From a virus, in IMG/VR virus record IMGVR_UViG_3300048836_000035: 44,940 bases of DNA; one strand, written 5' to 3'. Made by a program: the position numbers and the translations under genes. Positions 5,944 through 35,264 of this stretch are shown here, piece by piece; position 1 is the stretch's first letter; each line of letters starts with the position of its first letter. The notes beneath the pieces were generated by a model. That model searched no databases. It was not told the DNA's origin and worked only from the letters and a program-made list of their open reading frames with translations.

Positions 5944-7254
5944 ATGCCCTTAATGGCAGCCGGTATCGGCGCAGTCGGTAGTATCGCGGGCGGCCTCATC
6001 GGAGGCAAGCCGTCGACTCCGAAGTACCGCCCCTTCGACGTGACGTCAGGCCTCGGTCTGGTGGACTACGACAAGAAGGGCCGGACCATCGACGCCACGC
6101 TCTCCCCGGAGCAGCAGGCGTTTGCGGACCAGTACAACCAGATTGCGCAGGGCTACCTCGGTGGTGGCTACGGCGGCCAGCAGGCGCAGGAGTGGATGCA
6201 GCAGGCAGGCGGGATGATCCCCGGCCTGTTCCAAGGCTCGCTGGATGCTTCGGCCATGGATCCGTACTCGCTTGCTGCGTACCAGCAGCAGTTGGGAGGG
6301 TTGCAGGGGCAGCTGGGCGGGATGTTTGGGGGTGCGGCTAACTACGGTGCGGGCATACTCGGAGGCCCGGCCCCCGGCGCGGCCCAGTCGAACCAGATGT
6401 TCGGCCTCGGCCAGCAGCTTGCGGGCAACAACTACAACGACGTGTACCAGCAGAGGCTCGGCCTTCTGCGCCAGCAGGCACAGCCGTACGAGCAGCGCGC
6501 TCAGGACTCGTTCCTTGGGCGGCAGTACGCAATGGGCCGCATGGGCACCACGGGTGGCCAGCGCGATATCGAGGCGTTCTCGACCGGCCTGAGTCAGGGT
6601 GACACGACCCGGCAGCTGGACGCGATGGGCTTGGCTGAGTCCCTGTACGGCAGGGATCAGGGTCTTGCTCAGGGCTACATGGGTCAGGGCTTGCAGGGCA
6701 TTCTGGGTGGCTTCGGTGCCCAGCAGCAGGCCGGTCAGGGCATGTTCGGCTTGGCTGGCCAGCTTGGACAGCAGCTTGGCGGTCTCTACGGGCAGGGCTT
6801 CGGCGCTGCGCAGGGCTTCAACGAGCTCACCAACCAGCGCGCACAGCAGCGGATGGCCAATGCCACGAACCTGTTTGGGTTTGGCTCGAACGTCAACACG
6901 CAGAACCTCCAGACCGGTACCGGTATGCAGGGGAACGCGGTCAACCTGTACCAGCAGTTGCTCGGCAACGCAGGCTACGGGCACACGGCTGGCGCTGGCG
7001 CTATGGCCGGTCAGGCCTACGCGGCTCAGTCCTTCCAGCCCAACGCGCTCGGCGCAGGCATTCAGGCGTTCAGCAACGGTATGCTCGCCAATCCGGCAGC
7101 CTTCGGCAGCCAGATCAAGGGCCTGTTCGGCGGAGGTGGTGCCCCGGCTCCGACCGTGGGCAGCTACGCCATGCAGCCGTTCAACGTGCCTAGTGGTGTG
7201 CAGAACATCCAGATGCCCAACTTCAACATCCTCCCCGGTGGAGGGAGCTTCTAA
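5944..7254 (+). CDS. Gly/Gln-rich internal virion (ejection) protein candidate
   Basis: 436 aa of low-complexity G/Q/A/M sequence, lying upstream of the SLT-containing protein. Confidence 0.5.
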   Translation: MPLMAAGIGAVGSIAGGLIGGKPSTPKYRPFDVTSGLGLVDYDKKGRTIDATLSPEQQAFADQYNQIAQGYLGGGYGGQQAQEWMQQAGGMIPGLFQGSLDASAMDPYSLAAYQQQLGGLQGQLGGMFGGAANYGAGILGGPAPGAAQSNQMFGLGQQLAGNNYNDVYQQRLGLLRQQAQPYEQRAQDSFLGRQYAMGRMGTTGGQRDIEAFSTGLSQGDTTRQLDAMGLAESLYGRDQGLAQGYMGQGLQGILGGFGAQQQAGQGMFGLAGQLGQQLGGLYGQGFGAAQGFNELTNQRAQQRMANATNLFGFGSNVNTQNLQTGTGMQGNAVNLYQQLLGNAGYGHTAGAGAMAGQAYAAQSFQPNALGAGIQAFSNGMLANPAAFGSQIKGLFGGGGAPAPTVGSYAMQPFNVPSGVQNIQMPNFNILPGGGSF

Positions 7255-8750
7255 TGGCGAATCCTCAGATGTATCCGGGCCTGCTCTCGCAGTTCGGCTT
7301 GGATCTCGACCCGGCCAAGATGAAGGAGCAAGACCTTCTCCTGAACCAGCAGCGCAACCTTGAGTTGGCTGGTGGGCTGGGCTACCGTGGCTCGGCAGCG
7401 GGTGCCGCTCAGGGCGGTGCCCTGTTCGCGGCTGCCCTTGCGAATCGGGGGTACAAGACCCCTGATCAAGACCAGCGGAAGATCGACACGGCCAAGCAGG
7501 CGACGCAGTTGATGGACGCGTGGAGGGCCAAGAACCCGGACGCCAAGGCTACCGACGCCTCCCTCCAGTACCAGAAGTTCCTTGCCGACTCTGCCTTCCG
7601 TAACGGGCTGGCCGACGTCGGTGCTTCGGTCATGGAACAGTACGAGACCAAGCGGATGCAGCGCGAGGCGCAGCAGCTTGAACTCAAGAACCTCGGCTTC
7701 GACTCGCGTATCAAGGAAGTGCAGGCCGACATGGCACCAGAGGAGGCCGAGCATCAGAAGTGGCTGTGGGGCCAAGAGGAGTGGCAGGATGTGTTCCCGG
7801 TCGGGGCCAACAACCCGAACACCGGCAAGCGCCTCAAGATCGACTCCGAAGGCAACATGACGGACAACCAAGGGAACGTCATCTATCAGGCTGGGGAGTA
7901 CACCTCAATCCGTCCGCAGGAGCTCACGTCGACCAACGGGGAAGGCGTCGAGCTAATGATGACCGACTCCGAGGCTGGCAAGAAGCGAGAGATCCAGACG
8001 GCCTTCGTGGAGATGATCGACGGTGTTACGGACGTTGCGAACATCATCGACAACGCGACTGCGCGGGATGGGAGCACTGACGTCCTAGGCTTCGGCGGAG
8101 CGGTCGCCGCTAAGTCTGTCGAGATCGCAGACAACATGACCTCGACGATGAACAACATCGGCAAGATGTTCGGCATCGCTCCGGGCGCAGTCGAGATCGA
8201 GATTCCCGGTGAGGTCGGCAAGAAGGGCCAGAAGAAGTACGCAGACCTGCGTGGTAGCGGGCAGAAGATCCTGCTTGAGAAGTACGGCAGACAGGTGGAC
8301 GGCGTGCTTCACGCCTACATCCCTGACGCCCTGCGGCTCACAGGTCAGGACGCCATCCGCATTCGACAGAACCTCATGAACGTGGCCTACGCGATCATGC
8401 GGTCGAAGGAGCCGGGCAACAACCGGTACTCGGACGCGGACTTCAAGAACGCTCTGGAACTTGCCGGTCAGGGATTGGCGGATCCCGAGAAGCTCAAGGC
8501 TACGTTGTACGACAACGTGAACCGGGCGGCTCGATCCTACGATCTGGCACTGGCTCAGACGGCTGGTATGCACGACCGGATCTGGTCGGCAGAGAGCAGA
8601 GAACTCACGGCTCGGAAGCGGGCCGAGTTCGACAAGCGGTTTGGCGGGTATGCGATTCCCACTGCACGTGGGGTAGCCCCGGTCAATAGCGGTCGTCCGG
8701 TCACGGTGACTGACGACGAGGGTGAGTGGCAGTTGTCCATCGCCCCATAA
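7254..8750 (+). CDS. Internal virion protein candidate
   Basis: 498-aa ORF with a start/stop overlap to the previous gene. Assigned by position within the internal-protein set. Confidence 0.5.
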   Translation: MANPQMYPGLLSQFGLDLDPAKMKEQDLLLNQQRNLELAGGLGYRGSAAGAAQGGALFAAALANRGYKTPDQDQRKIDTAKQATQLMDAWRAKNPDAKATDASLQYQKFLADSAFRNGLADVGASVMEQYETKRMQREAQQLELKNLGFDSRIKEVQADMAPEEAEHQKWLWGQEEWQDVFPVGANNPNTGKRLKIDSEGNMTDNQGNVIYQAGEYTSIRPQELTSTNGEGVELMMTDSEAGKKREIQTAFVEMIDGVTDVANIIDNATARDGSTDVLGFGGAVAAKSVEIADNMTSTMNNIGKMFGIAPGAVEIEIPGEVGKKGQKKYADLRGSGQKILLEKYGRQVDGVLHAYIPDALRLTGQDAIRIRQNLMNVAYAIMRSKEPGNNRYSDADFKNALELAGQGLADPEKLKATLYDNVNRAARSYDLALAQTAGMHDRIWSAESRELTARKRAEFDKRFGGYAIPTARGVAPVNSGRPVTVTDDEGEWQLSIAP

Positions 8751-13077: not shown

Positions 13078-13403
13078 TGCGGCGGGTCTCCGCCCTGTGG
13101 GAGATCTGGCACGAGTGCAACGATAGGTGGTTCGGGGGTAAGCTACGGCCCCCGACCGCCATCCGGATCACCCGCGCCAAGAAGTACGACGGTACCCTGC
13201 TCGTCACCGTCTCGGAGAACGACGAGATCATCCGCAACAAGATCATGATATCTGCCCACGTCAAGGACGTGCTAGGTGTCATGCTCCACGAGATGATCCA
13301 CCAGTACCAAGTGTTCGTCTTGAACGAGGACCCTGACCACGACGGAGCCTTCCGCTGCTACGCCAAGTACCTTGAGCGCCAGACAGGCGCGACCGTCAGA
13401 TAA
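13077..13403 (+). CDS. SprT-like zinc metalloprotease-domain protein
   Basis: TAATG overlap with the previous gene. Has an N-terminal WFGGKL pattern and an HEMIH (HExxH) motif. Last gene of the rightward block. Confidence 0.6.
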   Translation: MRRVSALWEIWHECNDRWFGGKLRPPTAIRITRAKKYDGTLLVTVSENDEIIRNKIMISAHVKDVLGVMLHEMIHQYQVFVLNEDPDHDGAFRCYAKYLERQTGATVR

Positions 13404-13410
13404 AGATATG

Positions 13411-13453
13411 CCCCGCCACGTCATACGTATGACATGGCGGGGCTTTTTCTTTG
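13411..13453. terminator. Hairpin terminator at the convergence point of both blocks, with the palindrome inside the stem
   Basis: ccccgccaCGTCATACGTATGACAtggcgggg followed by ctttttcttt on the + strand. An A-run precedes it and tatctttatc follows it on the - strand. Confidence 0.8.
13419..13434. promoter_or_regulatory. Palindrome copy (cGTCATACGTATGACa), inside the terminator stem
   Basis: 14-bp core GTCATACGTATGAC is exact. Confidence 0.9.
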
Positions 13454-24329: not shown

Positions 24330-25112
24330 CTACGCGCCCTTTACAAGGGCCTCGCGTAGGGCCAGTCCCACGTCACGCACCTTGCGGGACACCGTGGACT
24401 GGTCCATATCGTGCGTCTCGGCAATCTCTGCCTGCGTTTTCTCCTGTACCACAACAGCGTGGTAGATGCTCCACGCTTCCTGTCCGCAGGCCTCGACTGC
24501 CACTCTCTCCAAGAACTCTCGCAGATTCTCTGACACTACATCACTCTCCGGTGTTGCCAATGTTACCGACGTCAGGTACGCGTGAGGCACGTACCCGTTC
24601 CCCATCATCGCAGCCTCAAGCTGCACCAACGGCTCCTCGATTTCCTCCTCGTCACCTGAGTACGGGTCCTCCCCCGGCAGGTCCAAGTTCGCCTCCATGA
24701 TCTCGGGCAGGTGTCCCCGCCCGTCCTTCACCCGCTGCACGTGCATCCACAGACTCCGGTTGAACATGGCCATGAGCGAGGCCACCTGCTCAGGCACCCG
24801 CGTCACGTAGTCCTGCACGTACATCAGGGCGTCCGTTGCCACGTTCGCTGCTTCCTCGTAGTCCATGCCACCCCGTGATGCGCGGGCAACCATGACCTTC
24901 CAGACCAGCGCCCAGACGATGTGCCGAGCCGCGTCATCCCCGGCTACGAACCGGTCCTGATAGGCCCGTACCTTCTTCTCCAGAGCGGACACCCCCTCGT
25001 CGTCCGTGTGCTGCACCCCCGTGGCTCGTAGCTCCATCATGCCCGCCACCCACGTCTTGTGGATCTCGGCACTCTTGGCCTTGTAGTAGTTCTCGTACGT
25101 TCGCTCACTCAT
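24330..25112 (-). CDS. Sigma-70-family (ECF-like) sigma factor candidate
   Basis: Region-2-like IVWALVWKVMVARASRGGMDYEEAANVATDALMYVQDY. Region-4.2-like HTH EKTQAEIAETHDMDQSTVSRKVRDVGLALREAL. Confidence 0.6.
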   Translation of the reverse strand: MSERTYENYYKAKSAEIHKTWVAGMMELRATGVQHTDDEGVSALEKKVRAYQDRFVAGDDAARHIVWALVWKVMVARASRGGMDYEEAANVATDALMYVQDYVTRVPEQVASLMAMFNRSLWMHVQRVKDGRGHLPEIMEANLDLPGEDPYSGDEEEIEEPLVQLEAAMMGNGYVPHAYLTSVTLATPESDVVSENLREFLERVAVEACGQEAWSIYHAVVVQEKTQAEIAETHDMDQSTVSRKVRDVGLALREALVKGA

Positions 25113-25859: not shown

Positions 25860-26072
25860 TTAGCACGGATCTTCCAATCCATTATCATGCCCATCGTCCT
25901 CATGTATTAGCTTCCATTGGCGATCATACAGCGCCCCGCAATCTCCACAAAGATAGTTGTCGTTGGAGGCATAGAACCAAGTAGACCGGCACTGACATTG
26001 CGCCAAGCACTTGATCCCGTTGACATAGACGAACTCAACCGCATCACCACGTTCCCAGTCCTCCCTGCTCAT
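25860..26072 (-). CDS. Zinc-ribbon protein (70 aa)
   Basis: CLAQCQC...CGDCG pattern. Confidence 0.5.
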   Translation of the reverse strand: MSREDWERGDAVEFVYVNGIKCLAQCQCRSTWFYASNDNYLCGDCGALYDRQWKLIHEDDGHDNGLEDPC

Positions 26073-26212
26073 GACGTTCTCCTTCTGTCGAAGTAGTCGG
26101 ATGCGACTCCGCGCAGGACAACCGCGCTGCGGTACGTGCTGTCCCGTATGTGCTCCAACGTGGACTCTGCTTCGGCCAGCCGCGCCACGAGTGCGTCATA
26201 GTCGGACGCCAT
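26069..26212 (-). CDS. Short RLAEA-motif paralogue (47 aa)
   Basis: MASDYDALVARLAEAESTLEHIRD shares the motif with the two upstream genes. No clear SD. Confidence 0.3.
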   Translation of the reverse strand: MASDYDALVARLAEAESTLEHIRDSTYRSAVVLRGVASDYFDRRRTS

Positions 26213-26288
26213 CACGACGATATAGCAGGATGATTTGAGGCAATGCGATTCGTAGTCATGGATATTTGATCGACTCACGCCGTAGTAA

Positions 26289-26666
26289 TCAACCACGCCT
26301 TTCCTCCCGCCCAAGGTGGGCGTCGATGCGGGCGAGGAATTCGCTCCGCTCCTCCTGAAATCCGGCAATCGGCCTAGACCAGCAAGGCGCGTCGATTTCC
26401 TCCCGCGTCTCCCGCAGCAGCGCGTCCGCCTCGGCCAGCCGCGAGCGCAGGCGCTCGTTGTCTCCGAGTAGCTGCTTATAGTCGTCTGACAACAGCACAT
26501 AGTCCGTGCGCAGGGACTCGATCTCGGCGTCACGCCAGTCCTTGAGCGGATACGACGCTGGTGCATTGTTGGGGTATGGAACTCCGCATAAGTGAACGGT
26601 CGCCGTGTCTGACGGATAGAGATACAGCCCGCACGACGGGCAGCGCGGAACGTCACCGGCACTCAT
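26289..26666 (-). CDS. RLAEA-motif paralogue with N-terminal CxxC (125 aa)
   Basis: Start MSAGDVPRCPSCG follows gggag. Contains AEIESLRT...LRSRLAEADALL...FLARIDAHL. Confidence 0.5.
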   Translation of the reverse strand: MSAGDVPRCPSCGLYLYPSDTATVHLCGVPYPNNAPASYPLKDWRDAEIESLRTDYVLLSDDYKQLLGDNERLRSRLAEADALLRETREEIDAPCWSRPIAGFQEERSEFLARIDAHLGREERRG

Positions 26667-26976
26667 GGCTCTGCTCCCGCGCAAGGAAGGCGTCGATGTT
26701 GGAAATCGCACGCATTACTGCACACGACTCTGCGTGTGGCCTGTAGTCTCTTACGTGACAGCACGATCTAACTCCGAACTCCGCGCCTTCTTCAAAGTCA
26801 CTATGCTCAGCGACTTCGATGAGCGTCACCCTTGTGCTGTGCAGGCACACATCGGCCTCGGCCAGCCGCGAGCGCAGACTCTCGATCTCAGCCTCGCGTG
26901 CCTCGTAGACCAGCGAGCACACGTCCCACTGGTGGGCGTCCAGCCCCAGTTCCTTGAACAGTTCGTGCTTGCTCAT
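26653..26976 (-). CDS. RLAEA-motif paralogue (107 aa)
   Basis: Contains AEIESLRSRLAEADVCL...NIDAFLARE. Shares a 22-bp identical DNA stretch with 26429-26450. Confidence 0.55.
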   Translation of the reverse strand: MSKHELFKELGLDAHQWDVCSLVYEAREAEIESLRSRLAEADVCLHSTRVTLIEVAEHSDFEEGAEFGVRSCCHVRDYRPHAESCAVMRAISNIDAFLAREQSHECR

Positions 26977-27755
26977 ACCGCCACCCCCAGCTTCTCACGG
27001 AAGCGTTCCACGTAGAAGTCCAGCGTAGACCCCTCGATGCCCGGTGCCGTGTTGACCTCCAGAACCCGAGCCTCCCCTGCGTTGTTGCACATGAGATCCA
27101 CCGCAGCGAAGTCCAATCCGAGCGCAGCTACCGCAGAGCAAGCCGTTGAAGTCACAGAATTGGGAGCCTCAATCTCCCGTGTGCAGTACACGTAGCCGTT
27201 GCGGTGGTTACGCACAGCGTTAGGCTCCGCTCCGTTGCGCCGCCGCTTCTTCTGCGCCAGATGGTACGGGCCGAACACGTGGACCCGGTACTCATGCTCG
27301 GCACGGAACCGCTTGGTGTACAGCGGGGCATCCGGCATATCGTCCTCCCCGATGGGCACGGCAGACTCGGGATCTACGATCTCGATTCCGCTGCCTCCCT
27401 GCCCCGTGGTAGAGTGGCGAGCGAACACCGTGTGTCCGCCCTGCGCCCACGCAAAGGCGAGCGCCCTGTCGGTCGTCCACTCCACCGTCGGCACCCGTGC
27501 CTCGGTCAGCGCCTTGAAGCAGGCCAGCTTGTCACGGGCCACAGCCACCCGGTCGAAACCGTTGAGCACGTTCACGAACCCACGCAGGGGCCTGCCCATC
27601 CCGTTGTGCCTGCCCCAGTTGATGAGCACGTCCCCGTCCCGTGACAGGAAGCGGCTGGTCCCATCCAGCTTGATGCGCTTGACGCGCAGGGCACGGGACA
27701 GCAGCTTGGCCGAGTTGCTCGGGCCGTAAGGAATGATTCTGATACGTCTACGCAT
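26973..27755 (-). CDS. ATP-grasp ligase (RimK-like)
   Basis: Start MRRRIRI follows aggagagg. C-terminus EYRVHVFG...NHRNGYVY...LGLDFAAVDLM...RVLEVNTAPGIEGST fits the ATP-grasp fold pattern. Confidence 0.75.
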   Translation of the reverse strand: MRRRIRIIPYGPSNSAKLLSRALRVKRIKLDGTSRFLSRDGDVLINWGRHNGMGRPLRGFVNVLNGFDRVAVARDKLACFKALTEARVPTVEWTTDRALAFAWAQGGHTVFARHSTTGQGGSGIEIVDPESAVPIGEDDMPDAPLYTKRFRAEHEYRVHVFGPYHLAQKKRRRNGAEPNAVRNHRNGYVYCTREIEAPNSVTSTACSAVAALGLDFAAVDLMCNNAGEARVLEVNTAPGIEGSTLDFYVERFREKLGVAV

Positions 27756-27767
27756 AGTCCTCTCCTG

Positions 27768-27783
27768 TGTCATACGTATGACA
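27768..27783. promoter_or_regulatory. Palindrome copy, 16/16, between the GATase stop and the ATP-grasp SD
   Basis: Stop at 27786-88. The - strand reads motif-caggagaggact-ATG (27755). Confidence 0.9.
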
Positions 27784-27785
27784 GG

Positions 27786-29198
27786 TTAGTGCAGGCCAAC
27801 GGCCAACTTCTGGTTGTCGTCAAAGCATCCGGGGCAGATGCACCGGCTGCCGTTGTTCACCCACCCGCAGATCTCTGCCTCGTCCGCCATCAGGCGGTCG
27901 CCGCATTGGTAGCACCCGTCAGCCGTGGCCTTGATCCACTCGTCGACCGGCACCCACTCCCCGTGTGCGGCAGGCACGTACTCTCCGCCCTTCAACCCGC
28001 CCCTGCGGTCAAGGGACGACACGTTCGCAGTACCAGAGTAATACGTCCGGTTCACCAGACGAGCCACGATCATCGGGTCCGCCCCCTTGTCCAGCCCACG
28101 CACGGCCACGGGCCGCACCGTCCACCGCTCCGCGTTGTCCTTGCAGTTCTCGACCGCCGAGTACAGGCAGTGCATCACCACAGCAGGGAGCAGCATACCG
28201 CCGTCCGGGTGGATGATGTTGCCCGACACGAGGGCTGTCGGCAGGCCAGCCACCGGGGTGACGAGGGACGGTACGAACAGGCAGTCCGTCTCGGCGTCAA
28301 GGTCATGCTCCAGCAGCATCAACTCACTTTCTTCGGGGACCTTTGTAGGGGCGGCGCTGCCCGACCACGGCGGCAGCGGGTTGCTTCTCCGGGGTGCGCT
28401 CCCCTGAGAGCCACCGCCGTACCATCCCGCCGAGCGACGGCTGCTGTAGGACGGCACGTACAAAGGGACCGACTGTACCTCGGGGACGGTACTACCGGGG
28501 CGGAAGGTCAGCAACTCTCCCGGCTTGGGGTACGCAATGGTCCCGCCGTGGAAGTTGTTGCGCTTAGCCAGCCAATGCAGCATCTCCGCCTCGCTCGCCA
28601 GTAGCACCGTGTCCTCGCACTCGGCGAAGTACATATGCAGGGGGCGCTTGTCATTGCGGATCACACGCACAGCGTTGTCCCGAGCGTCATGCCAGATCAG
28701 GGTGAACGCCCCGTCCAGCAGCTTGATGACCTCGGCAGGGTCGGTAGCCTCGGCCAGATTGTGCGCGATGGCGTGGCTGTCCACTTCCACCCCCTCGCCC
28801 TTCAACTCCCACAGGGACTTGCCCAAGTCGTAGGTGCTGTTGAGCGTGCCGTTGTGGACCAGCGTGATCGGCCCCTCTTGGAACGGGTGCGCGTTGTCCA
28901 CGCTGACTGTGCCCACCGTGGCCGAGCGGTTGTGCCCGATGACAGCCCGCAGGTCGCACGTGTTGGAGTATGTCATGCGGTCCTGATACTCCTTGCTGGC
29001 GACTAGCTCGTAGCCGTCGGCTGCGACCTTGAACCAGTCGGCAGCCTGACCGTCCTCCATCTTGTGCCCCACGGTGAAGATGCCCGTGCTGTCGTCACCG
29101 CGCACGGTGCCAGCAATGAGCGCGTTCTCCATGAACTTGCGGCGATCACCTGCGCCGCGCGCCTTCTCGTTGGTGATGAATCCTACTATTCCACACAT
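27786..29198 (-). CDS. Class-II (Ntn) glutamine amidotransferase-domain protein with C-terminal Cys-rich Zn-ribbon
   Basis: N-terminal MCGIVG nucleophile Cys2. HNRSATVG...NAHPF...LVHNGTL. C-terminal CYQCGD...CICPGC. Confidence 0.75.
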   Translation of the reverse strand: MCGIVGFITNEKARGAGDRRKFMENALIAGTVRGDDSTGIFTVGHKMEDGQAADWFKVAADGYELVASKEYQDRMTYSNTCDLRAVIGHNRSATVGTVSVDNAHPFQEGPITLVHNGTLNSTYDLGKSLWELKGEGVEVDSHAIAHNLAEATDPAEVIKLLDGAFTLIWHDARDNAVRVIRNDKRPLHMYFAECEDTVLLASEAEMLHWLAKRNNFHGGTIAYPKPGELLTFRPGSTVPEVQSVPLYVPSYSSRRSAGWYGGGSQGSAPRRSNPLPPWSGSAAPTKVPEESELMLLEHDLDAETDCLFVPSLVTPVAGLPTALVSGNIIHPDGGMLLPAVVMHCLYSAVENCKDNAERWTVRPVAVRGLDKGADPMIVARLVNRTYYSGTANVSSLDRRGGLKGGEYVPAAHGEWVPVDEWIKATADGCYQCGDRLMADEAEICGWVNNGSRCICPGCFDDNQKLAVGLH

Positions 29199-30205
29199 CA
29201 GACTTCTCCTTCCTCGTCAGAGGCTTCGGGTTCTGGTTCGTCGTAAATCTCGTCGTCTTCGTCGTATTCCGGCAGTTCGTCCTCGTCCCCATCCTCGTTG
29301 TCCAGAGTGGCGAACCTCTGAGTGGGCAGCCACGATCCAAGGTCAGGGCCGGGCTCGACCCCCTCGCCCACATCGAACGCACACGGCACTCCCCACCCTG
29401 ACTGTGCGTAGGTCACGGGCTGGAACAGCAGGGCTGTCTCGACCGCACCTAGATCGTGGAGCAGCGCCTCAAGTGCAGAGTCAGGCATATTGATCTGCTC
29501 GTACAGTTCCCCGAACAGCAGCTTGACTACTGCCGCAACCCCTTCCTGTGCGTACAGTTCGATGGGGTCGGGCAGCGTGTAGGCGTTAGCTGTCATACGT
29601 ATGACACGGACCCACGCTTCCAACTGCTCCGGGGTGTCGAACGTCCGAGCGTGCCGGAACTCCAGCGTACCGAACGTGCGCAGCGGACCAGCGAACAGTC
29701 CGCTGTACTTGCACGACTGGCGCAACGAGAACATGTCCCCAGAACGTAGCGCCCTGCTCACCAGCGCCGCCTCGTCGGGTGCCCTGTACCACGGCACGCA
29801 GAAGATGTTTTCCTCGCGCTCCGTGCCAGCCCACAGGAACACCAGCGGCTCGACCATAGCGTAGTACGTACAGATCCGCGCCACTTCATCGAAGGTACGC
29901 CCGAGCATATTGGCGTGGACGTGGATGCCCGTCCGTTCCGACGGCTCCCAATGCTTGCGCGTCTTGCCGTACAGGTAGTGAACGGCAGTCGCCACGTCGT
30001 CGGGTGGCAGGAACTTAGACACGAACTCAGCGCCAGAGTTCCGCAACGAGCCGTCGTCCTTGATGTGCCAGTACTTGGTCATCTTGTTCGCCAGTTCCAG
30101 TCTGGTACCCAAGTCGAACCTCTCGACCTCGACCTCGATGCCGTAGCCCTCGGTCGTGGGCGAGTTGAACTCGTTGGCCGAGTAGTCAGCGACGATAGGG
30201 GTCAT
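29198..30205 (-). CDS. Amidoligase (glutamine-synthetase-like, Amidoligase_2 pattern) with polyacidic C-terminal tail
   Basis: Motifs GIEVEVE, DGSLRNSGAEFVS, TGIHVHAN and GTLEFRHARTFD. ATGA coupling upstream and TGATG downstream. Confidence 0.8.
   Translation of the reverse strand: MTPIVADYSANEFNSPTTEGYGIEVEVERFDLGTRLELANKMTKYWHIKDDGSLRNSGAEFVSKFLPPDDVATAVHYLYGKTRKHWEPSERTGIHVHANMLGRTFDEVARICTYYAMVEPLVFLWAGTEREENIFCVPWYRAPDEAALVSRALRSGDMFSLRQSCKYSGLFAGPLRTFGTLEFRHARTFDTPEQLEAWVRVIRMTANAYTLPDPIELYAQEGVAAVVKLLFGELYEQINMPDSALEALLHDLGAVETALLFQPVTYAQSGWGVPCAFDVGEGVEPGPDLGSWLPTQRFATLDNEDGDEDELPEYDEDDEIYDEPEPEASDEEGEV
29591..29606. promoter_or_regulatory. Palindrome copy, 16/16, inside the amidoligase gene
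   Basis: Read in frame as R-V-I-R-M-T-A. Confidence 0.9.
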
Positions 30206-30867
30206 AGTTCCACCGTCCATTGCACTCTCCCATTCAGCGCCCGGTTGATGAGGCGACACGTCGTCGTGTCAGCGATAGGCTCCAGCAGCCCGCCGCTTTG
30301 AGTGGCAGCGACCTGCCCTCGGTAGTAGATCATGCGCTTACCCACTTGGTCCTGCGCCACGATGATGCGCCGATTGATGGCGATACTGAGCCATCCCTCA
30401 GCGAGCAGAGCAAGCGCCTCGTCCACGTTCGGCGGGTACCACGGAGCCCACAGATGGGGCACGGTATGCGCCGACAGGTTCTTGACCTGAGCGTACGCCA
30501 GAGAGCCACGCACCTTCCGCACCTCCCACCCACGAGGCACGACCACCTTCACCTGACGCCCGTTCAGCGTGCGCCGGTACTGCCGAGCCGGGATGCGCTC
30601 GACGCTGATCGCTACCTTGTGAGTCGGGATGTTGATGCTCCCGCAGATGGGCCACCACCCTGCGATCCGGGAGACAGGGCAAGTCGTCCGTTCCTCAAAG
30701 CGACTGCTCGCCTTGCGGATACGAGCGTATCGCTCGCTCCCGTCGTCGTCCACGAGGCGGTCGTAGATGGCAGGCTCGTAGCCCCCGCCTGTATCCACGA
30801 TGCAATAGCCCCCGCCTAACCATTGGGCTAGGTCGTCAGCCGATATGCCTTCCGGCAACTCAATCAT
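30202..30867 (-). CDS. Hypothetical protein (221 aa) inside the ligase cassette
   Basis: SD ggaggg. No motif recognised. Confidence 0.6.
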   Translation of the reverse strand: MIELPEGISADDLAQWLGGGYCIVDTGGGYEPAIYDRLVDDDGSERYARIRKASSRFEERTTCPVSRIAGWWPICGSINIPTHKVAISVERIPARQYRRTLNGRQVKVVVPRGWEVRKVRGSLAYAQVKNLSAHTVPHLWAPWYPPNVDEALALLAEGWLSIAINRRIIVAQDQVGKRMIYYRGQVAATQSGGLLEPIADTTTCRLINRALNGRVQWTVEL

Positions 30868-31223
30868 TTTGCACCCTCCATTTGTTGTACGTATGACACG
30901 GACGCGACGTTGACGGGCACCAGTACGAACGCAGCAAGGGCACGCGCCTCTGCTGGCGTCACCTTGCGCTTGGGCGGCTCCGGTGTGGGAGGCGGGATCG
31001 CCGTGCCACTCTCCGGGTACTTCATCTGCACGTGAACGGACTCGACCGGATCACCTTCCAGCGCCACCATCTGCAACGCACGCCGCTCCGCTTCCTCCGC
31101 ACTCAGGCACAGGAACTCGCACATGTACGTGCTGGCGTTCTCGCCTGAGGTAGTCACCTTCACGGTGTACCACTTCAGGCCGAGTTGGTTAGGCGTTTGC
31201 ACGGACGAACTCCCGCTCGTCAT
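30864..31223 (-). CDS. Hypothetical protein (start uncertain)
   Basis: ORF between the GGCT gene and the 221-aa gene. Several candidate starts. Confidence 0.35.
   Translation of the reverse strand: MTSGSSSVQTPNQLGLKWYTVKVTTSGENASTYMCEFLCLSAEEAERRALQMVALEGDPVESVHVQMKYPESGTAIPPPTPEPPKRKVTPAEARALAAFVLVPVNVASVSYVQQMEGAK
30883..30898. promoter_or_regulatory. Degenerate palindrome copy (14/16), 15 nt upstream of ATG 30867
   Basis: tgtTGtacgtatgaca. The right half and flank (atgacacggac) are identical to the copy at 29591. Confidence 0.6.
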
Positions 31224-31623
31224 CGGTCGGCAGCCACACCTGCGTGCCATGCACGTAGTCGACGGACGGCTTGACCGCGAGGTACGAGTGCGGCAGGAAG
31301 TACGCCCACGCTCCCTTCCACGGGGTCTGCACCTTGTGCCGACAGTAGTAGTCGGGGTGGCCCTCGATCATGTCCAGCATATCCAGCTGGCCCTTGCTGA
31401 TCCGATAGACCTCACCGAGGATCAGCGTCTCGGTCTTGTCGGTCGGAGTGTGCACCAGTCCGGGGTAGTAGTGCAGGTCCAGCATCCTGTACTGCCCGCG
31501 CAGCACGCACCGCCCGAGCAGGTCTGCACCTGACAGCGCGGAGTGATTGCCGCGCCCCTGCTTGAGCGATCCGTACACGAACACACGGATGCCCTGCGAA
31601 TCAACCTTCGTTTCATCAGCCAT
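31189..31623 (-). CDS. Gamma-glutamyl cyclotransferase (AIG2/GGACT-like)
   Basis: Motifs VFVYGSLKQGRGNH, YPGLV, LGEVYRI and LDMIEGHPDYY. Confidence 0.8.
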   Translation of the reverse strand: MADETKVDSQGIRVFVYGSLKQGRGNHSALSGADLLGRCVLRGQYRMLDLHYYPGLVHTPTDKTETLILGEVYRISKGQLDMLDMIEGHPDYYCRHKVQTPWKGAWAYFLPHSYLAVKPSVDYVHGTQVWLPTDDEREFVRANA

Positions 31624-32465
31624 TAGAGAATCTCCAGTCCAAAGTCAGACACATACTCCCGCAACTGGTACGCAAGCGTACCGTCTGCGGTCCCAATCGC
31701 ACGTCGCACGTCAGCCCACGGCATCTCGTTGTAGATGCGCCGCACTTCCTGCTCTCCACGCGCCAGCACGCCCATCGCACCGAACGCCATGCTCCCCACG
31801 TGCAGCGCCGAGCGCGTCGTCATGGTCCACGAGTTGCCGAGTGTGCGGTACTCGATCCCGTAGCGGGTAGGTCGGTAGCGTCCGGGGCTGCCGTAGAACT
31901 GCCGACGCTTGCCCTGATTGTCCATGTTGTGGACCAGAGCAGGCAGCCCGATCATCAGGTCGCAGATTGTGGCAGCCACGAAGTCGGGGCACTCCCACCC
32001 GAGGTATTCGCGGTAGCCCAAGTGGACGTGCCCACCTGCGAAGCGCCACGCTCCGCCCGGTTCCGTCAACTCGGACGGCTGGATGCGGGGCAGCGGAGCG
32101 CCCTGCTCGTAGGCGTTGAAGTCCGGGCTGCACCCGAACATCTGCGCCTGAGGGTTGGCGAGGGCCGCCTCGTTGAAGAACACCGAGCAGTCCGGCCACG
32201 CCTGCACCCCCGGCACCGTCTGCCGCAGCTTGGCAAGCGCCAACTGCCTGCCTCGCACCACCACGTCCGCGAAAGAGTGCGGGTCGGACACGGGCGGCAC
32301 GTTGTACTCCGCCATCACGTTGTCCTCTTGCACCGCGAACCCACTTCCGGCCCCGCCAACGGGGATCGGTTTGTCCTTCGTCCCACCGAGCAGCCCAACA
32401 ATGGGCAGCACGCTGTTCCCATCACGAGTGATGAAGAACTCAGGATCAGCGCCTATCGTGAACAT
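31623..32465 (-). CDS. phiEco32-type COOH-NH2 ligase (type 2 amidoligase)
   Basis: MFTIGADPEFF...VQEDNVMAEYNVPP...GCSPDFNAY...FAGGHVHLG...RYGIEYRTLGNSW matches the family pattern, recalled from memory. Confidence 0.8.
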   Translation of the reverse strand: MFTIGADPEFFITRDGNSVLPIVGLLGGTKDKPIPVGGAGSGFAVQEDNVMAEYNVPPVSDPHSFADVVVRGRQLALAKLRQTVPGVQAWPDCSVFFNEAALANPQAQMFGCSPDFNAYEQGAPLPRIQPSELTEPGGAWRFAGGHVHLGYREYLGWECPDFVAATICDLMIGLPALVHNMDNQGKRRQFYGSPGRYRPTRYGIEYRTLGNSWTMTTRSALHVGSMAFGAMGVLARGEQEVRRIYNEMPWADVRRAIGTADGTLAYQLREYVSDFGLEIL

Positions 32466-32478
32466 CTGCCTTCTCCTT

Positions 32479-32494
32479 TGTCATACGTATGACA
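32479..32494. promoter_or_regulatory. Palindrome copy, 16/16, between stop 32496 and the SD/ATG at 32465
   Basis: The - strand reads motif-aaggagaaggcag-ATG. Confidence 0.9.
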
Positions 32495-32495
32495 T

Positions 32496-33485
32496 TTAAC
32501 CGTTGTTCCACAGACCGACGGGCTGCTGCGCCAGATACGCAGGGGTACGCGCCGCCAGCCGCCAATAGTCGGGAATCGTCAAGTCAGACGCCTTCTCGAT
32601 AGGGCGCGTGACATACTCCTCCAGTTCCTCGTCCCATATCTCGTCCATGGCCTCGTCGTCGTGGTCCCCGTCCAACGAGAAGGACAGGTTGATTGCCCCG
32701 ACCATGCTGCCCGAGTTGGAGTTCAGGTACTCCGGTGCCTCGTGTACGTTCACGGCCACGGCCCGAGTGTAGCGGTAGTGGTCGTCGCCGAGGACCGTCG
32801 CGCCCAACAGTTCCTCGGTCACGGTCTGGTCCTGAGACTTGTCGATGCGAGTCTCCCGATTGGCGTACTCAGCGTCGTAGACCGGGCCACACGTGAAGTT
32901 CGGCACGGCTTGCAGCTTGGCTGCCGTGCGCATCACGTTGCGCATCTTTGACCGATTGTTAGCCGCCCTGTCGAACGCGAAGATGCCCCGCTTCCCGACC
33001 TCAATCATACGGGCCAGCGCCCAGTACATAAGGCTCCGGTCCATGATCTCCGCCACTTCGCGCCGACTCAGCGACCGCTCAGCACGCAGCGCGTCGTGGA
33101 TGGACGGCACGTTCGCCCGTTCTGCGTGTGACACCCTGAGGTGACTCGCCCCGAGCGTCCCGAGGCGTGGCGCAGACCACTGGTTTTCCTGCTCGTGGGT
33201 GAAGATGGTCCCACCCGACGACGCCAGCACTCCGCCGCAGAAGTCGTGGATGTGCTGCCCGAGCAGCATCCGAGTCTCGGCCATACACCAGCGGTCCGAG
33301 TCCTCGGAGTTGCGGAAGCGGTACAGCCCCCACACCCACCACCACGCGGCCCGCTGGTCCGGACCCTCTGCCGGATTGAACGGACGCCACGTGCTGTAGC
33401 CCACCAGCTGGTTACGCGGGAAGCTCCCCACGAACAAGGGCACAAACGCAGTAGCGAGCGGCTGATTGGTGAAAGTCACAGTCAT
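32496..33485 (-). CDS. Hypothetical protein (329 aa)
   Basis: SD ggagaa. Trp-rich N-terminal region and an acidic patch DGDHDDEAMDEIWDEELEE. Confidence 0.65.
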   Translation of the reverse strand: MTVTFTNQPLATAFVPLFVGSFPRNQLVGYSTWRPFNPAEGPDQRAAWWWVWGLYRFRNSEDSDRWCMAETRMLLGQHIHDFCGGVLASSGGTIFTHEQENQWSAPRLGTLGASHLRVSHAERANVPSIHDALRAERSLSRREVAEIMDRSLMYWALARMIEVGKRGIFAFDRAANNRSKMRNVMRTAAKLQAVPNFTCGPVYDAEYANRETRIDKSQDQTVTEELLGATVLGDDHYRYTRAVAVNVHEAPEYLNSNSGSMVGAINLSFSLDGDHDDEAMDEIWDEELEEYVTRPIEKASDLTIPDYWRLAARTPAYLAQQPVGLWNNG

Positions 33486-33496
33486 TTCGATTCTCC

Positions 33497-33512
33497 AGTC
33501 ATACGTATGACA
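33497..33512. promoter_or_regulatory. Palindrome copy, 15/16, overlapping a stop codon and preceding the SD/ATG at 33485
   Basis: The - strand reads TGTCATACGTATGACT-ggagaatcgaa-ATG. The TGA of the 58-aa gene lies within the motif. Confidence 0.9.
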
Positions 33513-35097: not shown

Positions 35098-35126
35098 ATT
35101 ATGACACATTGGGCGCAAAAAGTCAA
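35098..35126 (-). promoter_or_regulatory. Sigma-70-type promoter with extended -10
   Basis: The - strand reads TTGACT (35126-35121), a 17-nt spacer ending in TGt, then CATAAT (35103-35098). Confidence 0.65.
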
Positions 35127-35230: not shown

Positions 35231-35264
35231 AAAAAAAAGCCCCCGATCCTTTCGGACCGGGGGC
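35231..35264 (-). terminator. Rho-independent terminator after the first leftward gene
   Basis: The - strand reads gcccccggtccgaaaggatcgggggc followed by tttttttt. Sits 17 nt after the stop at 35281. Confidence 0.85.

Follow-up and report, generated by a model that had tools for sequence, protein, structure and literature searches.

Background

The closest described counterparts of the gene cluster reported here have been found in podophages. A "seven-gene peptidoglycan modification cassette" has been described as conserved in phages RIO-1, phiEco32, 7-11, PA11, tf, LUZ24, PaP3 and CW02 (PMC5498523, PMC11945000), and the same kind of pathway has been proposed in these two reports and in PMC10580990, all of which cite Iyer 2009 and Hardies 2013. 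For LUZ24 and the Kuraviruses, the amidoligase cassette is a prediction of Iyer et al. 2009. The name "peptidoglycan modification", as applied to the RIO-1/CW02-type cassette of the Zobellviridae (Hardies 2013; Duhaime 2017, PMC5498523), denotes a hypothesis rather than a demonstrated activity. In a Bruynoghevirus subjected to directed evolution on biofilm, missense mutations were reported in both the amidoligase and the glutamine amidotransferase (GATase) gene (PMC11450229). Our searches of the literature and the PDB turned up neither a biochemical study of the cassette nor a solved structure, be it for either of its two GS-like ligases, and the literature yielded no substrate, product or phenotype for any cassette member and no experimental support for the peptidoglycan modification that the name implies. 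The initial annotation of the locus had stated that the combination was known only from comparative genomics and had no defined substrate; the lack of biochemistry is borne out, but the cassette is more widely documented, in ~312 phage records and several genome papers, than that statement implied.

Enzymes of similar kinds cooperate in several other systems. In butirosin biosynthesis an ATP-grasp enzyme and a GGCT-fold enzyme (BtrJ/BtrG) carry out gamma-glutamyl protection and deprotection, peptidoglycan is amidated by a ligase and glutamine amidotransferase pair (MurT/GatD), and the AsnB/LtsA-type proteins are class-II amidotransferases that pair ligase and amidotransferase to amidate a carboxylate. 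Like the cassette, these systems unite an ATP-dependent carboxylate-amine ligase with a glutamine amidotransferase, or an ATP-grasp enzyme with a gamma-glutamyl cyclotransferase, in one pathway. The ligase fold of MurT is Mur-ligase-like, whereas that of the cassette is GS-like, and the cassette has neither sequence-level membership in any of the three systems nor an identified carrier protein.

Organization and relatives of the gene cluster

The window examined here is a stretch of 44,940 nucleotides from a viral genome (IMG/VR record IMGVR_UViG_3300048836_000035). The eight leftward genes that had been annotated between 26973 and 33485 were all found on the minus strand at the coordinates claimed (Table 1). 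Their order is the same in the relatives L007 and L022, in L013 up to the end of its contig, and in L006, where the GATase gene is split and the ATP-grasp gene fragmented. This recurrence, together with dN/dS values of 0.05-0.45 for the six cassette genes compared with L013, indicates that the eight genes are real. All six are under purifying selection, with values of 0.05 for GGACT, 0.13 for unk221, 0.15 for the COOH-NH2 ligase and 0.33 for unk119. As had been annotated, most junctions are overlaps (five of the seven internal ones, one of them 35 nt long); the remaining two are 30-nt spacers, both of which contain a palindrome along with a Shine-Dalgarno (SD) site. The cassette is probably read as a single polycistronic mRNA with translational coupling.

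Table 1. Features of the amidoligase gene cluster and its surroundings in the window
Feature	Coordinates	Strand	Family, basis or remarks
unk329 (329 aa), first gene of the cassette block	32496..33485	minus	invariant HDFCGG motif
phiEco32-type COOH-NH2 ligase (GCS2/GS-like carboxylate-amine ligase)	31623..32465	minus	PF14395, phrog_3815
AIG2/GGACT-type gamma-glutamyl(amine) cyclotransferase	31189..31623	minus	PF06094
unk119 (119 aa), small lineage-specific protein	30864..31223	minus	
unk221 (221 aa), conserved, probably non-catalytic cassette protein	30202..30867	minus	predicted SH3/Tudor/KOW-like beta-barrels
GS-like amidoligase (Amidoligase_2 by orthology)	29198..30205	minus	phrog_7469, orthologues
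Class-II (Ntn) GATase	27786..29198	minus	GATase_6; domain residues 1-265, then uncharacterised C-terminal domain
RimK-like ATP-grasp ligase	26973..27755	minus	phrog_2599
Junction COOH-NH2 ligase/GGACT			TAATG overlap
Junction GGACT/unk119			35 nt overlap
Junction unk119/unk221			ATGA overlap
Junction unk221/amidoligase			ATGA overlap
Junction amidoligase/GATase			TGATG overlap
Candidate sigma-70-type promoter of the leftward unit	35098..35126	minus	consensus scan only
Strong terminator	35239-35264		candidate promoter lies just downstream
Palindrome, exact	33498..33511		followed by SD and unk329 start
Palindrome, exact	32480..32493		30-nt spacer unk329/COOH-NH2 ligase; L007 and L013 have their own versions at this junction
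Palindrome, degenerate (2 mismatches)	30884..30897		inside unk119 3' end, 4 nt ahead of unk221 SD
Palindrome, exact	29592..29605		inside amidoligase coding sequence, encodes RVIRMT; kept in L013
Palindrome, exact	27769..27782		30-nt spacer GATase/ATP-grasp; L007 has its own version at this junction

Judged by sequence, the cluster is the window's intact copy of the known podophage amidoligase cassette (phiEco32-, LUZ24-, PA11-, RIO-1- and CW02-type), which is present in some 312 phage records of GenBank. In the window as elsewhere, its place is always the early/middle region, upstream of the genes for replication. Tblastn searches of GenBank retrieved the ATP-grasp protein from 312 and the COOH-NH2 ligase from 314 phage records, with equal genus counts; these near-identical distributions indicate that the two co-occur. 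When loci from different phage groups were compared, the order COOH-NH2 ligase, unk221-family gene, amidoligase, GATase, ATP-grasp was kept in 10 of 12, the GGACT gene being the only one that moves across the loci. The exceptions to the order are CW02, where the enzyme set is that of the window but, unlike in the window, the GATase genes are found upstream of those for the ligases, and the contigs of L013 and L004, which stop before the ATP-grasp position. The amidoligase and GATase genes adjoin each other in every compared locus except CW02 and L013.

The LUZ24 (gp16-gp22) and Kuravirus (Bas89_0083-0073) cassettes contain the same five enzyme families as the window, including a GATase with a Cys-rich C-terminus, at BLASTP identities of 26-42%, and share with it the core order and the site upstream of primase and helicase, with an undetectably divergent gene filling the unk221 slot in LUZ24 and Bas89. 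Their GGACT gene follows that for ATP-grasp, whereas in the window it lies between those for the COOH-NH2 ligase and unk221; its place within the cassette varies among phage groups. Unlike these cassettes, that of the window has an additional small gene for unk119, the lineage-specific upstream gene for unk329 and an acidic tail on the amidoligase.

The five enzymes

The five family assignments made in the initial annotation proved right. The ones for COOH-NH2 ligase, GGACT and GATase pass Pfam cut-offs; those of the amidoligase and the ATP-grasp protein rest on PHROG profiles and orthologues because their Pfam scores fall below cut-off. The COOH-NH2 ligase scores 29.3 bits against PF14395 (cut-off 25) and matches phrog_3815 (E 2.3e-48); it is 33-36% identical to LUZ24 gp16 and QDWS535 gp43 by BLASTP. 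The amidoligase matches phrog_7469 (E 2.5e-29) and reaches just 13.2 bits against PF12224 (cut-off 22), where its orthologues score 25.9-39.2 bits; that of L006, which is 47% identical to the window protein, passes at 25.9 bits. BLASTP aligns it with the amidoligases of QDWS535, LUZ24 and Bas89 (3e-26 to 2e-8), and it also matches those of Lyrsu01 and CW02. It ends in an acidic tail of 35 aa, with 21 D/E among the final 45 residues.

The ATP-grasp protein matches phrog_2599 (E 5.8e-73) and, by BLASTP, the ATP-grasp proteins of LUZ24, Bas89 and QDWS535 (1e-21 to 1e-53); its identity to those of LUZ24, Bas89, QDWS535 and Lyrsu01 is 32-43%. Every Pfam ATP-grasp model and NCBIfam model stayed below cut-off. 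The start at 27755 is preferred because the alternative at 27773 falls within a palindrome. Among PDB entries, the top matches to the protein are alpha-L-glutamate ligases of the RimK type (7qys, 7qyr, 5zct, 4iwx; E only 4e-4), with which its EVNxxPG Mg/ATP motif aligns. The PHROG annotation as a RimK orthologue was rejected (20.3 bits for NF007764, whose cut-off is 331), and the protein also lies outside the RimK family model (TIGR00768 26.6 bits versus 143.4). It has the ATP-grasp fold and EVNxxPG in common with RimK, the ribosomal protein S6:L-glutamate ligase, without being its orthologue, and nothing suggests S6 as its substrate.

The GATase begins with MCGIVG, and its Cys2 nucleophile and HNR/HNG motifs align with PurF; GATase_6 (55.6 bits) covers residues 1-265 only, and phrog_4736 matches at E 1e-61. 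Its N-terminal Cys and the position of its gene next to that for the amidoligase, the stop of which overlaps its start, are as expected of the cassette. The protein ends in a CxxC...CxCxxC zinc-ribbon-like tail, the Cys pairs of which are kept in LUZ24 gp19, Bas89_0080 and L007; in L006 the C-terminal 110 residues form a separate ORF. Identification as GlmS, PurF or AsnB was rejected (28-58 bits versus cut-offs of 267-418). For GlmS, the PHROG annotation, only residues 1-208 match (TIGR01135 42.8 bits versus 418), and the C-terminal half, where a full-length match to GlmS would include the SIS isomerase domains, has no family match. The GGACT protein, with YGSL and LDxxEG motifs, matches PF06094 (69.4 bits) and phrog_2520 (E 8e-19).

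The proteins without family assignment

The initial annotation regarded all three remaining proteins as candidate substrates or specificity factors. The three are not alike, as unk329 and unk119 are lineage-specific and unk221 is a conserved core component across several phage groups. The gene for unk221 is the conserved one that, in at least four phage groups, separates the amidoligase gene from that for the COOH-NH2 ligase. Among 1.84 billion cluster representatives searched, 255 clusters (50% identity) matched it at E<=1e-3, and its HMM matches the protein in the same slot in QDWS535 (7e-11), Lyrsu01 (4e-6), CW02 (2e-4) and also L004, L005, L022 and L023. The CW02 member, gp8, improved from E 2e-4 to 3e-17 after one iteration; the LUZ24 and Bas89 genes in the slot (~190-205 aa) gave no detectable homology (E 0.027 and 1). 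Its AF2 model is confident (pLDDT 89.5, pTM 0.83), and comparison with the PDB gave local barrel matches only, predicting SH3/Tudor-like barrels and no enzyme fold. Against BFVD there were 10 matches (TM 0.44-0.72), among them CW02 H9D1D2 (TM 0.54-0.61), a protein of 190 aa that was equated with gp8 from its length. For unk221, the role of a fixed, non-catalytic subunit or of an adaptor is more likely than that of a substrate specific to the lineage.

Both unk329 and unk119 are confined to the lineage of the window. For unk329, no Pfam, PHROG, NCBIfam or PADLOC match was found, and only 6 homologues turned up in 5.8 billion clusters; it has counterparts at the matching position in L006, L007, L013 and L022, with a weak one in L023. 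Compared with L013 it shows 73% amino acid identity (dS 0.445) between neighboring genes that are 97-99% identical, and by this comparison it is a divergence hot spot. AF2 gave only a poor model of it (pLDDT 52), for which a fold search found no significant match. At its start, unk119 shares 35 nt with the GGACT gene, and an alternative start lies at 31250; the protein has no Pfam, PHROG or NCBIfam match, and homologues at the matching position only in L006, L007, L013 and L022. Since both are missing from most cassette-bearing phages, neither can be a general substrate.

Transcription context and palindromes

The cassette is part of an early/middle leftward transcription unit and lies upstream of the gene for a sigma-like factor and of the replication genes, which are immediately downstream of it on the same strand and encode primase, DnaB-like helicase, DNA polymerase and exonuclease; the terminase is on the other arm. 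A relative carries an SU10-type portal. Within 26973-33485, a consensus scan found no promoter-like or terminator-like site.

The 14-mer palindrome core GTCATACGTATGAC occurs in 13 copies in the window, versus 0.06 expected by chance. The five copies annotated near 33497, 32479, 30883, 29591 and 27768 are all present, four exact and one with two mismatches. At the junctions of related phages the TACGTA core of the palindrome is kept while the arms vary in complementary fashion.

A possible pathway and its alternatives

From the observed gene content, homology, conservation and synteny we infer a chemistry in which the products of the cassette would, on balance probably, form one pathway for building, amidating and trimming a peptide of the gamma-glutamyl type, with all of them acting in the cytoplasm on one acceptor. 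This agrees with the cautious reading of the initial annotation, in which an amide-linked tag or small molecule is made and trimmed during early or middle infection. The GS-like amidoligase would activate a carboxylate with ATP, and the adjacent Ntn amidotransferase would supply glutamine-derived ammonia to give a carboxamide. Amino acids, probably glutamate or gamma-glutamyl units, might be attached through further ATP-dependent amide bonds, one by the GCS2-like COOH-NH2 ligase and one by the RimK-like ATP-grasp enzyme, and the GGACT cyclotransferase might remove a gamma-glutamyl group as 5-oxoproline in a deprotection or editing step. The barrel protein unk221 would hold the acceptor or the enzymes together as a non-catalytic subunit, with unk329 and unk119 as lineage-specific accessories. 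Against a role as ammonia donor, the Ntn domain could instead be a hydrolase, acting on gamma-glutamyl groups like EgtC. A peptidoglycan stem-peptide precursor, as proposed in the literature, is only tentatively and narrowly preferred as the acceptor to a protein C-terminus or a free metabolite, and nothing within the window ties the cassette specifically to cell-wall precursors. The full pathway is perhaps dispensable, since in L006 the GATase gene is split and that for the ATP-grasp enzyme fragmented, unless these reflect an assembly error.

RimK and LysX act on C-terminal carboxylates, and the action of RimK on ribosomal protein S6, of LysX on LysW and of PafA on Pup offers parallels for an alternative that we consider unlikely, namely that a short glutamyl or gamma-glutamyl peptide is built on a protein, for instance one of the host or the phage that is modified at its C-terminal carboxylate or at one in a side chain, with unk221 as substrate adaptor and the fast-evolving unk329 as target or specificity factor. 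The ATP-grasp enzyme is indeed nearest to the RimK-type ligases that act on protein C-termini, the predicted barrels of unk221 would be modules of a kind that typically binds proteins or peptides, the divergence of unk329 far outpaces that of its neighbors, as expected of a component facing a host target, and the acidic tail of the amidoligase in this lineage could itself be glutamylated. However, the RimK equivalog model gives 20 bits versus 331, unk329 and unk119 are missing from most cassette phages, and among the products of the cluster there is no small protein resembling Pup, LysW or ubiquitin whose C-terminus bears a conserved acceptor motif. A carrier of the Pup/PafA or LysW/LysX type was rejected, as unk119, unk221 and unk329 do not end in acidic acceptors (Glu/Gln, EDWGE-like) that are conserved across homologues, and the seemingly invariant C-terminal Gly of unk329 is absent from the more distant homologue P0163.

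Somewhat less likely still is the synthesis or remodeling of a soluble gamma-glutamyl compound (glutathione-, polyamine- or dipeptide-antibiotic-like) that would reprogram host metabolism or neutralize host defence or competing phages. The enzyme set (a GCS2-like ligase, a glutathione-synthetase-type ATP-grasp enzyme, a cyclotransferase, and an amidotransferase paired with an ATP-grasp) resembles those of the gamma-glutamyl cycle and of small-peptide antibiotic pathways; the Bruynoghevirus biofilm mutations (PMC11450229) suggest a host-condition-dependent role in fitness. On the other hand, a widely conserved non-catalytic barrel protein is not obviously needed for a soluble-metabolite pathway, the cassette contains no transporter or self-resistance gene, and none of its proteins matched a PADLOC defence model or a known anti-defence family. 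Finally, the addition of an amino-acid-derived group to phage DNA or nucleotide precursors, as a hypermodification against restriction, is highly improbable even though the cassette always adjoins replication and nucleotide-metabolism genes, as no thymidylate-synthase-like hydroxymethylase, base-modifying kinase or transferase was found among the leftward-block ORFs scanned, the literature found on LUZ24- and phiEco32-type phages reports no modified bases, and to our knowledge the known DNA-hypermodification enzymes include none of the five families of the cassette.

Significance

The novelty of the locus is lowered by the ~312 records and the genome papers that already name the cassette, and the copy described here, though real, is ordinary for its phage group, since hundreds of short-tailed phages carry the cluster. 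What is new is the unk221 family with its predicted barrel model, the lineage-specific proteins unk329 and unk119, and the pattern of conserved core and varying arms in the palindromes.

A further copy of a widespread cassette

The eight consecutive minus-strand ORFs between positions 26973 and 33485 of the window are confirmed at the coordinates given in the initial annotation, and all five of the enzyme families assigned to them there were backed by family searches, with caveats for the ATP-grasp protein and the amidoligase, whose Pfam scores lie below cut-off (see the table). The ATP-grasp protein falls under the cut-off in every Pfam model, but its closest solved relatives are RimK-type ligases, with which its EVNxxPG motif aligns. 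For the amidoligase, the Amidoligase_2 model is passed by the orthologue in the related contig L006 and by the homologues in Alcaligenes phage QDWS535, LUZ24, the Kuravirus-like Bas89 and Salinivibrio phage CW02. No relative of either the amidoligase or the COOH-NH2 ligase, both of which are GS-like, was detected in a PDB search. In the class-II glutamine amidotransferase (GATase), the N-terminal Cys (MCGIVG) and the HNR/HNG motifs of the domain could be aligned, the C-terminal 200 residues of the 470-aa protein matched no family, and the C-terminus ends in CxxC...CxCxxC. The amidoligase carries a strongly acidic C-terminal tail of 35 aa (29198-29305; 21 D/E among the last 45 residues) that is also found in the relatives L006 and L007 and is missing from the amidoligases of LUZ24, Bas89 and QDWS535.

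Features of the cassette in the window, with dN/dS values from the comparison of six window genes with contig L013
Feature	Position	Strand	Evidence	dN/dS
unk329	32496-33485	-	six homologues only	0.45
COOH-NH2 ligase	31623-32465	-	PF14395 29.3 bits (cut-off 25); phrog_3815 2e-48	0.15
GGACT/AIG2 protein	31189-31623	-	69.4 bits	0.05
unk119	30864-31223	-	kept in the window's lineage only	0.33
unk221	30202-30867	-	255-cluster family by profile search	0.13
Amidoligase	29198-30205	-	phrog_7469 2.5e-29; Amidoligase_2 13.2 bits (cut-off 22)	0.17
Class-II GATase, 470 aa	27786-29198	-	domain = residues 1-265 only
RimK-like ATP-grasp	26973-27755	-	phrog_2599 6e-73
16-bp palindrome TGTCATACGTATGACA	e.g. 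24146, 27769, 32480, 33498, 34671

The same five enzymes are encoded upstream of primase/helicase and DNA polymerase genes in LUZ24, Bas89 (Kuravirus-like), QDWS535, Pseudomonas phage Lyrsu01 and CW02, and the window is arranged in the same manner. Searches by tblastn detected the ATP-grasp gene in 312 GenBank phage records and the COOH-NH2 ligase gene in 314, with near-equal breakdowns by host genus (Pseudomonas ~120, Escherichia 94 and Vibrio 22, followed by Aeromonas, Proteus, Salmonella and Cronobacter). When 12 loci were scanned locally with HMMs, the order COOH-NH2 ligase, a ~200-aa gene, amidoligase, GATase and ATP-grasp was kept in 10; the exceptions noted were CW02, in which the GATase gene lies upstream, and the contigs L013 and L004, which stop before the ATP-grasp position. 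The gamma-glutamyl cyclotransferase (GGACT) gene is the only one that changes position among these loci.

Genome papers already catalogue the cassette, in one instance under the name "putative peptidoglycan modification module" (PMC11945000), and the roles proposed for it are superinfection exclusion or the readying of the wall for lysis (PMC11945000, PMC10580990, both citing Iyer et al. 2009 and Hardies et al. 2013). Full-text literature searches returned no biochemical or structural study of the cassette, so the earlier statement that such systems are known only from prediction still stands; the novelty attached to it was overstated, the underlying observation is sound, and the interpretation offered was reasonable and is as yet unproven. 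The cassette in the window is a further copy of a known and widespread one, from which it differs in that its gene order and accessories are particular to the lineage. The sole hint about function comes from a Bruynoghevirus evolved on biofilm, which acquired missense mutations in the amidoligase and GATase genes (PMC11450229).

Conservation and divergence among close relatives

The genes are real and conserved: the eight-gene order is shared with the metagenomic relatives L007 and L022, and with L013 as far as that contig reaches; an additional IMG/VR contig, L003, is identical to the window. The order is also kept in L006, but with a split GATase gene and a fragmented ATP-grasp gene. In that segment (L006:11640-13865) two ORFs, one of 342 aa and a Cys-rich one of 110 aa, correspond to the GATase, and the ATP-grasp protein is present as two pieces of ~110 aa. 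Either the cassette is decaying in this relative or the assembly contains frameshift errors. An HNH homing endonuclease gene inserted in L013 (8416-8817) separates the amidoligase gene of this close relative from its GATase gene; UFV-P2 has one at the same junction, and the HNH genes in the Bas89 cassette are at other junctions.

The dN/dS values are those of components under purifying selection. The protein unk329, of 329 aa, stands apart from its neighbors: it shares 73% amino acid identity with its counterpart at L013:4135-5124 (dS 0.445), as compared to 97-99% for the adjacent genes (dS 0.06-0.15). Judged from these alignments, unk329 is a divergence hot spot, through recombination or an arms race, and can be regarded as a quickly diverging, lineage-specific partner of the cassette. 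An HDFCGG motif is invariant among its homologues. The structural model of unk329 is poor (pLDDT 52) and yielded no significant fold match; the best Foldseek matches were to SpeG-type GNATs at E values of at least 0.14, which makes a GNAT-like ligase a lead only. We also considered the C-terminal Gly of unk329, present in six of six close homologues, as an activated carboxylate, and dropped the idea because the distant homologue P0163 ends in ...VFTH.

A conserved sixth component

The initial annotation had grouped three proteins as partners of the enzymes without family assignments. This grouping holds in part, in that the 221-aa protein unk221 belongs to the conserved core, whereas unk329 and the 119-aa unk119 are specific to the lineage. 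A word-index search recovered 8 homologues of unk221; when 1.84 billion cluster representatives were searched in full with a profile, 255 clusters were recovered at E<=1e-3, and almost all of these are stand-alone proteins of ~200-240 aa. The family HMM matches the gene between the COOH-NH2 ligase and amidoligase genes in several phages, namely QDWS535 (gp42, 7e-11), Lyrsu01 (4e-6) and CW02 (gp8, 2e-4), as well as the contigs L004 and L005. The relationship to the QDWS535 and Lyrsu01 genes is recovered only by this broad HMM; pairwise BLASTP of unk221 and unk329 against the genes in the same positions of these two phages gave nothing significant. In Lyrsu01 (PP179323) the family member is an ORF at 7001-7615 (+) that is unannotated in GenBank; the hypothetical gene overlapping it on the minus strand, Lyrsu01_00054, is probably a mis-call. 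Two other candidates, LUZ24 gp17 and Bas89_0082, both occupy this slot and were set aside: gp17 was the top new match after one HMM iteration but only at E 0.027, and Bas89_0082 gave E 1. A pattern scan of 185,579 species genomes found no cellular homologues of unk221.

The AlphaFold model of unk221 is confident (pLDDT 89.5, pTM 0.83). It has no global match in the PDB, where only local matches of ~50 residues to SH3-like barrels were found (Tudor, the KOW domain of the ribosomal protein eS4, and WYL), and it matches ten uncharacterised viral proteins in BFVD with TM scores of up to 0.72, one of them a 190-aa CW02 protein that we equate with gp8 by its length. From the family HMM, the conserved slot, the predicted model and its fold matches, unk221 is a sixth conserved component of the cassette and probably a non-catalytic one, and its family provides a clear handle for finding partners of the cassette.

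Transcription unit and palindromes

A strong intrinsic terminator on the minus strand (35264-35239; an 11-bp stem followed by T8) is succeeded directly by a sigma-70-like promoter (35126-35098; TTGACT, a 17-nt spacer, TG and CATAAT), and it is here that the transcription unit serving the cassette likely has its boundary. No promoter-like or terminator-like site was seen inside the cassette itself. As the initial annotation had reported, overlapping junctions predominate: five of the seven internal ones are overlaps of TAATG, 35 nt, ATGA, ATGA and TGATG, and each of the remaining two is a spacer of 30 nt in which a palindrome occurs together with a Shine-Dalgarno (SD) sequence. The same strand continues after the cassette with genes for a sigma-70/ECF-like factor, primase, DnaB-like helicase, DNA polymerase and exonuclease. 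The sigma-like factor (24330-25112, minus strand) scores 25.4 bits against TIGR02937, under the cut-off of 42.9, and recalls the own-sigma strategy of phages phiEco32, 7-11 and CW02. Three tandem small ORFs lie 3' of the ATP-grasp gene (26653-26976, 26289-26711 and ~26069-26215); they look like paralogues with a common RLAEAD/E helix motif, and none matched a family.

The 14-mer GTCATACGTATGAC occurs in the window in 11 exact and 2 near copies, against 0.06 expected, and the five palindromes that had been pointed out within the cassette were all found again (33498, 32480, 30884 with 2 mismatches, 29592, which is within the gene for the amidoligase, and 27769). The 16-bp form has 13 copies, confined to the leftward early/middle block (13420-36333); in seven of these, read in the orientation of the gene, 0-4 nt separate the end of the copy from an SD and start codon, and the rest are in coding sequence. 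Within IMG/VR, multiple copies of the exact 16-mer were found only in a contig identical to the window. The copy at 13420 is located at the tip of a hairpin rich in GC (GCCCCGCCA...TGGCGGGGC). A T-rich run follows this hairpin, which stands where the two convergent gene blocks meet (13400-13450) and is probably a bidirectional terminator.

At the same junctions, the window has TGTCA-TACGTA-TGACA, L007 has GATTA-TACGTA-TAATC, and both L006 and L005 have CTTG-TACGTA-CAAG, so that the TACGTA core is constant and the arms change complementarily. These sequences may act solely as stable RNA hairpins, but the hairpins are predicted to be weak (-1.5 to -5.3 kcal/mol), and an RNA structure is for this reason no more likely than a site recognised by a dimeric DNA-binding protein that co-evolves with it. 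The palindrome is unlikely to be a phage-sigma or ECF-type promoter, as there is no conserved -35-like element upstream and a transcript beginning 6-8 nt downstream would lack the SD. The half-site TACGTATGAC is similar to TACT/RTGMC, the nick consensus of phages tf and LUZ24 (PMC3517423); like the palindrome copy at 13420, one LUZ24 nick motif (L010:1918) is part of a hairpin, where it lies in the loop of GGGGCG/CGCCCC. The palindrome is a candidate operator, processing site or nick site.

A possible pathway and its acceptor

Three families of ATP-dependent carboxylate-amine ligases, an Ntn amidotransferase, a gamma-glutamyl cyclotransferase and a barrel protein are co-inherited with little change in their order, and they probably form one pathway. 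The start/stop overlap and near-universal adjacency of the amidoligase and GATase genes suggest that these two would use glutamine to amidate a carboxylate activated by ATP. Amino acids (Glu or gamma-Glu, by family resemblance) would be added by the COOH-NH2 ligase and the ATP-grasp protein, and the GGACT cyclotransferase would take off a gamma-glutamyl group.

With regard to the acceptor, we tentatively put a peptidoglycan precursor first. A protein acceptor seems unlikely, and a free metabolite somewhat more so. Modification of DNA is highly improbable, as the scanned part of the replication arm contains no hydroxymethylase or other base-modification gene. No support for a role in defence or anti-defence came from the PADLOC defence models, which none of the cassette proteins matched.

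A more elaborate scheme, which we consider improbable, would make the cassette a phage machine for tagging proteins or peptides, rather than a modifier of the cell wall, with a regulator bound to the palindromes. The universally conserved SH3/Tudor-like protein of the unk221 family would offer a protein of the host or phage to three amide ligases in succession; these would build an amidated gamma-glutamyl peptide on it, and the GGACT enzyme would reverse or edit the mark. Fast-evolving, lineage-specific partners such as unk329 would redirect this machinery during an arms race against the defences of the host. The covarying palindromes with their TACGTA core, which directly precede ribosome-binding sites, would be the sites of a co-evolving phage regulator that times the expression of sub-blocks of the cassette.

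Implications

The window adds an uncultured lineage of 60% GC, with a different gene order, to the phages that carry the cassette. Because this phage is uncultured, LUZ24, phiEco32 or CW02 would be better suited to the question of what the cassette does. The cassette is among the most widespread multi-enzyme modules in lytic podophages whose product is not yet identified, and it is carried by therapeutic phages of Pseudomonas (Bruynoghevirus) and E. coli (Kuravirus). Identification of the product would reveal a new route by which these phages rewire their hosts, whether the target is the cell wall, a protein or a metabolite.
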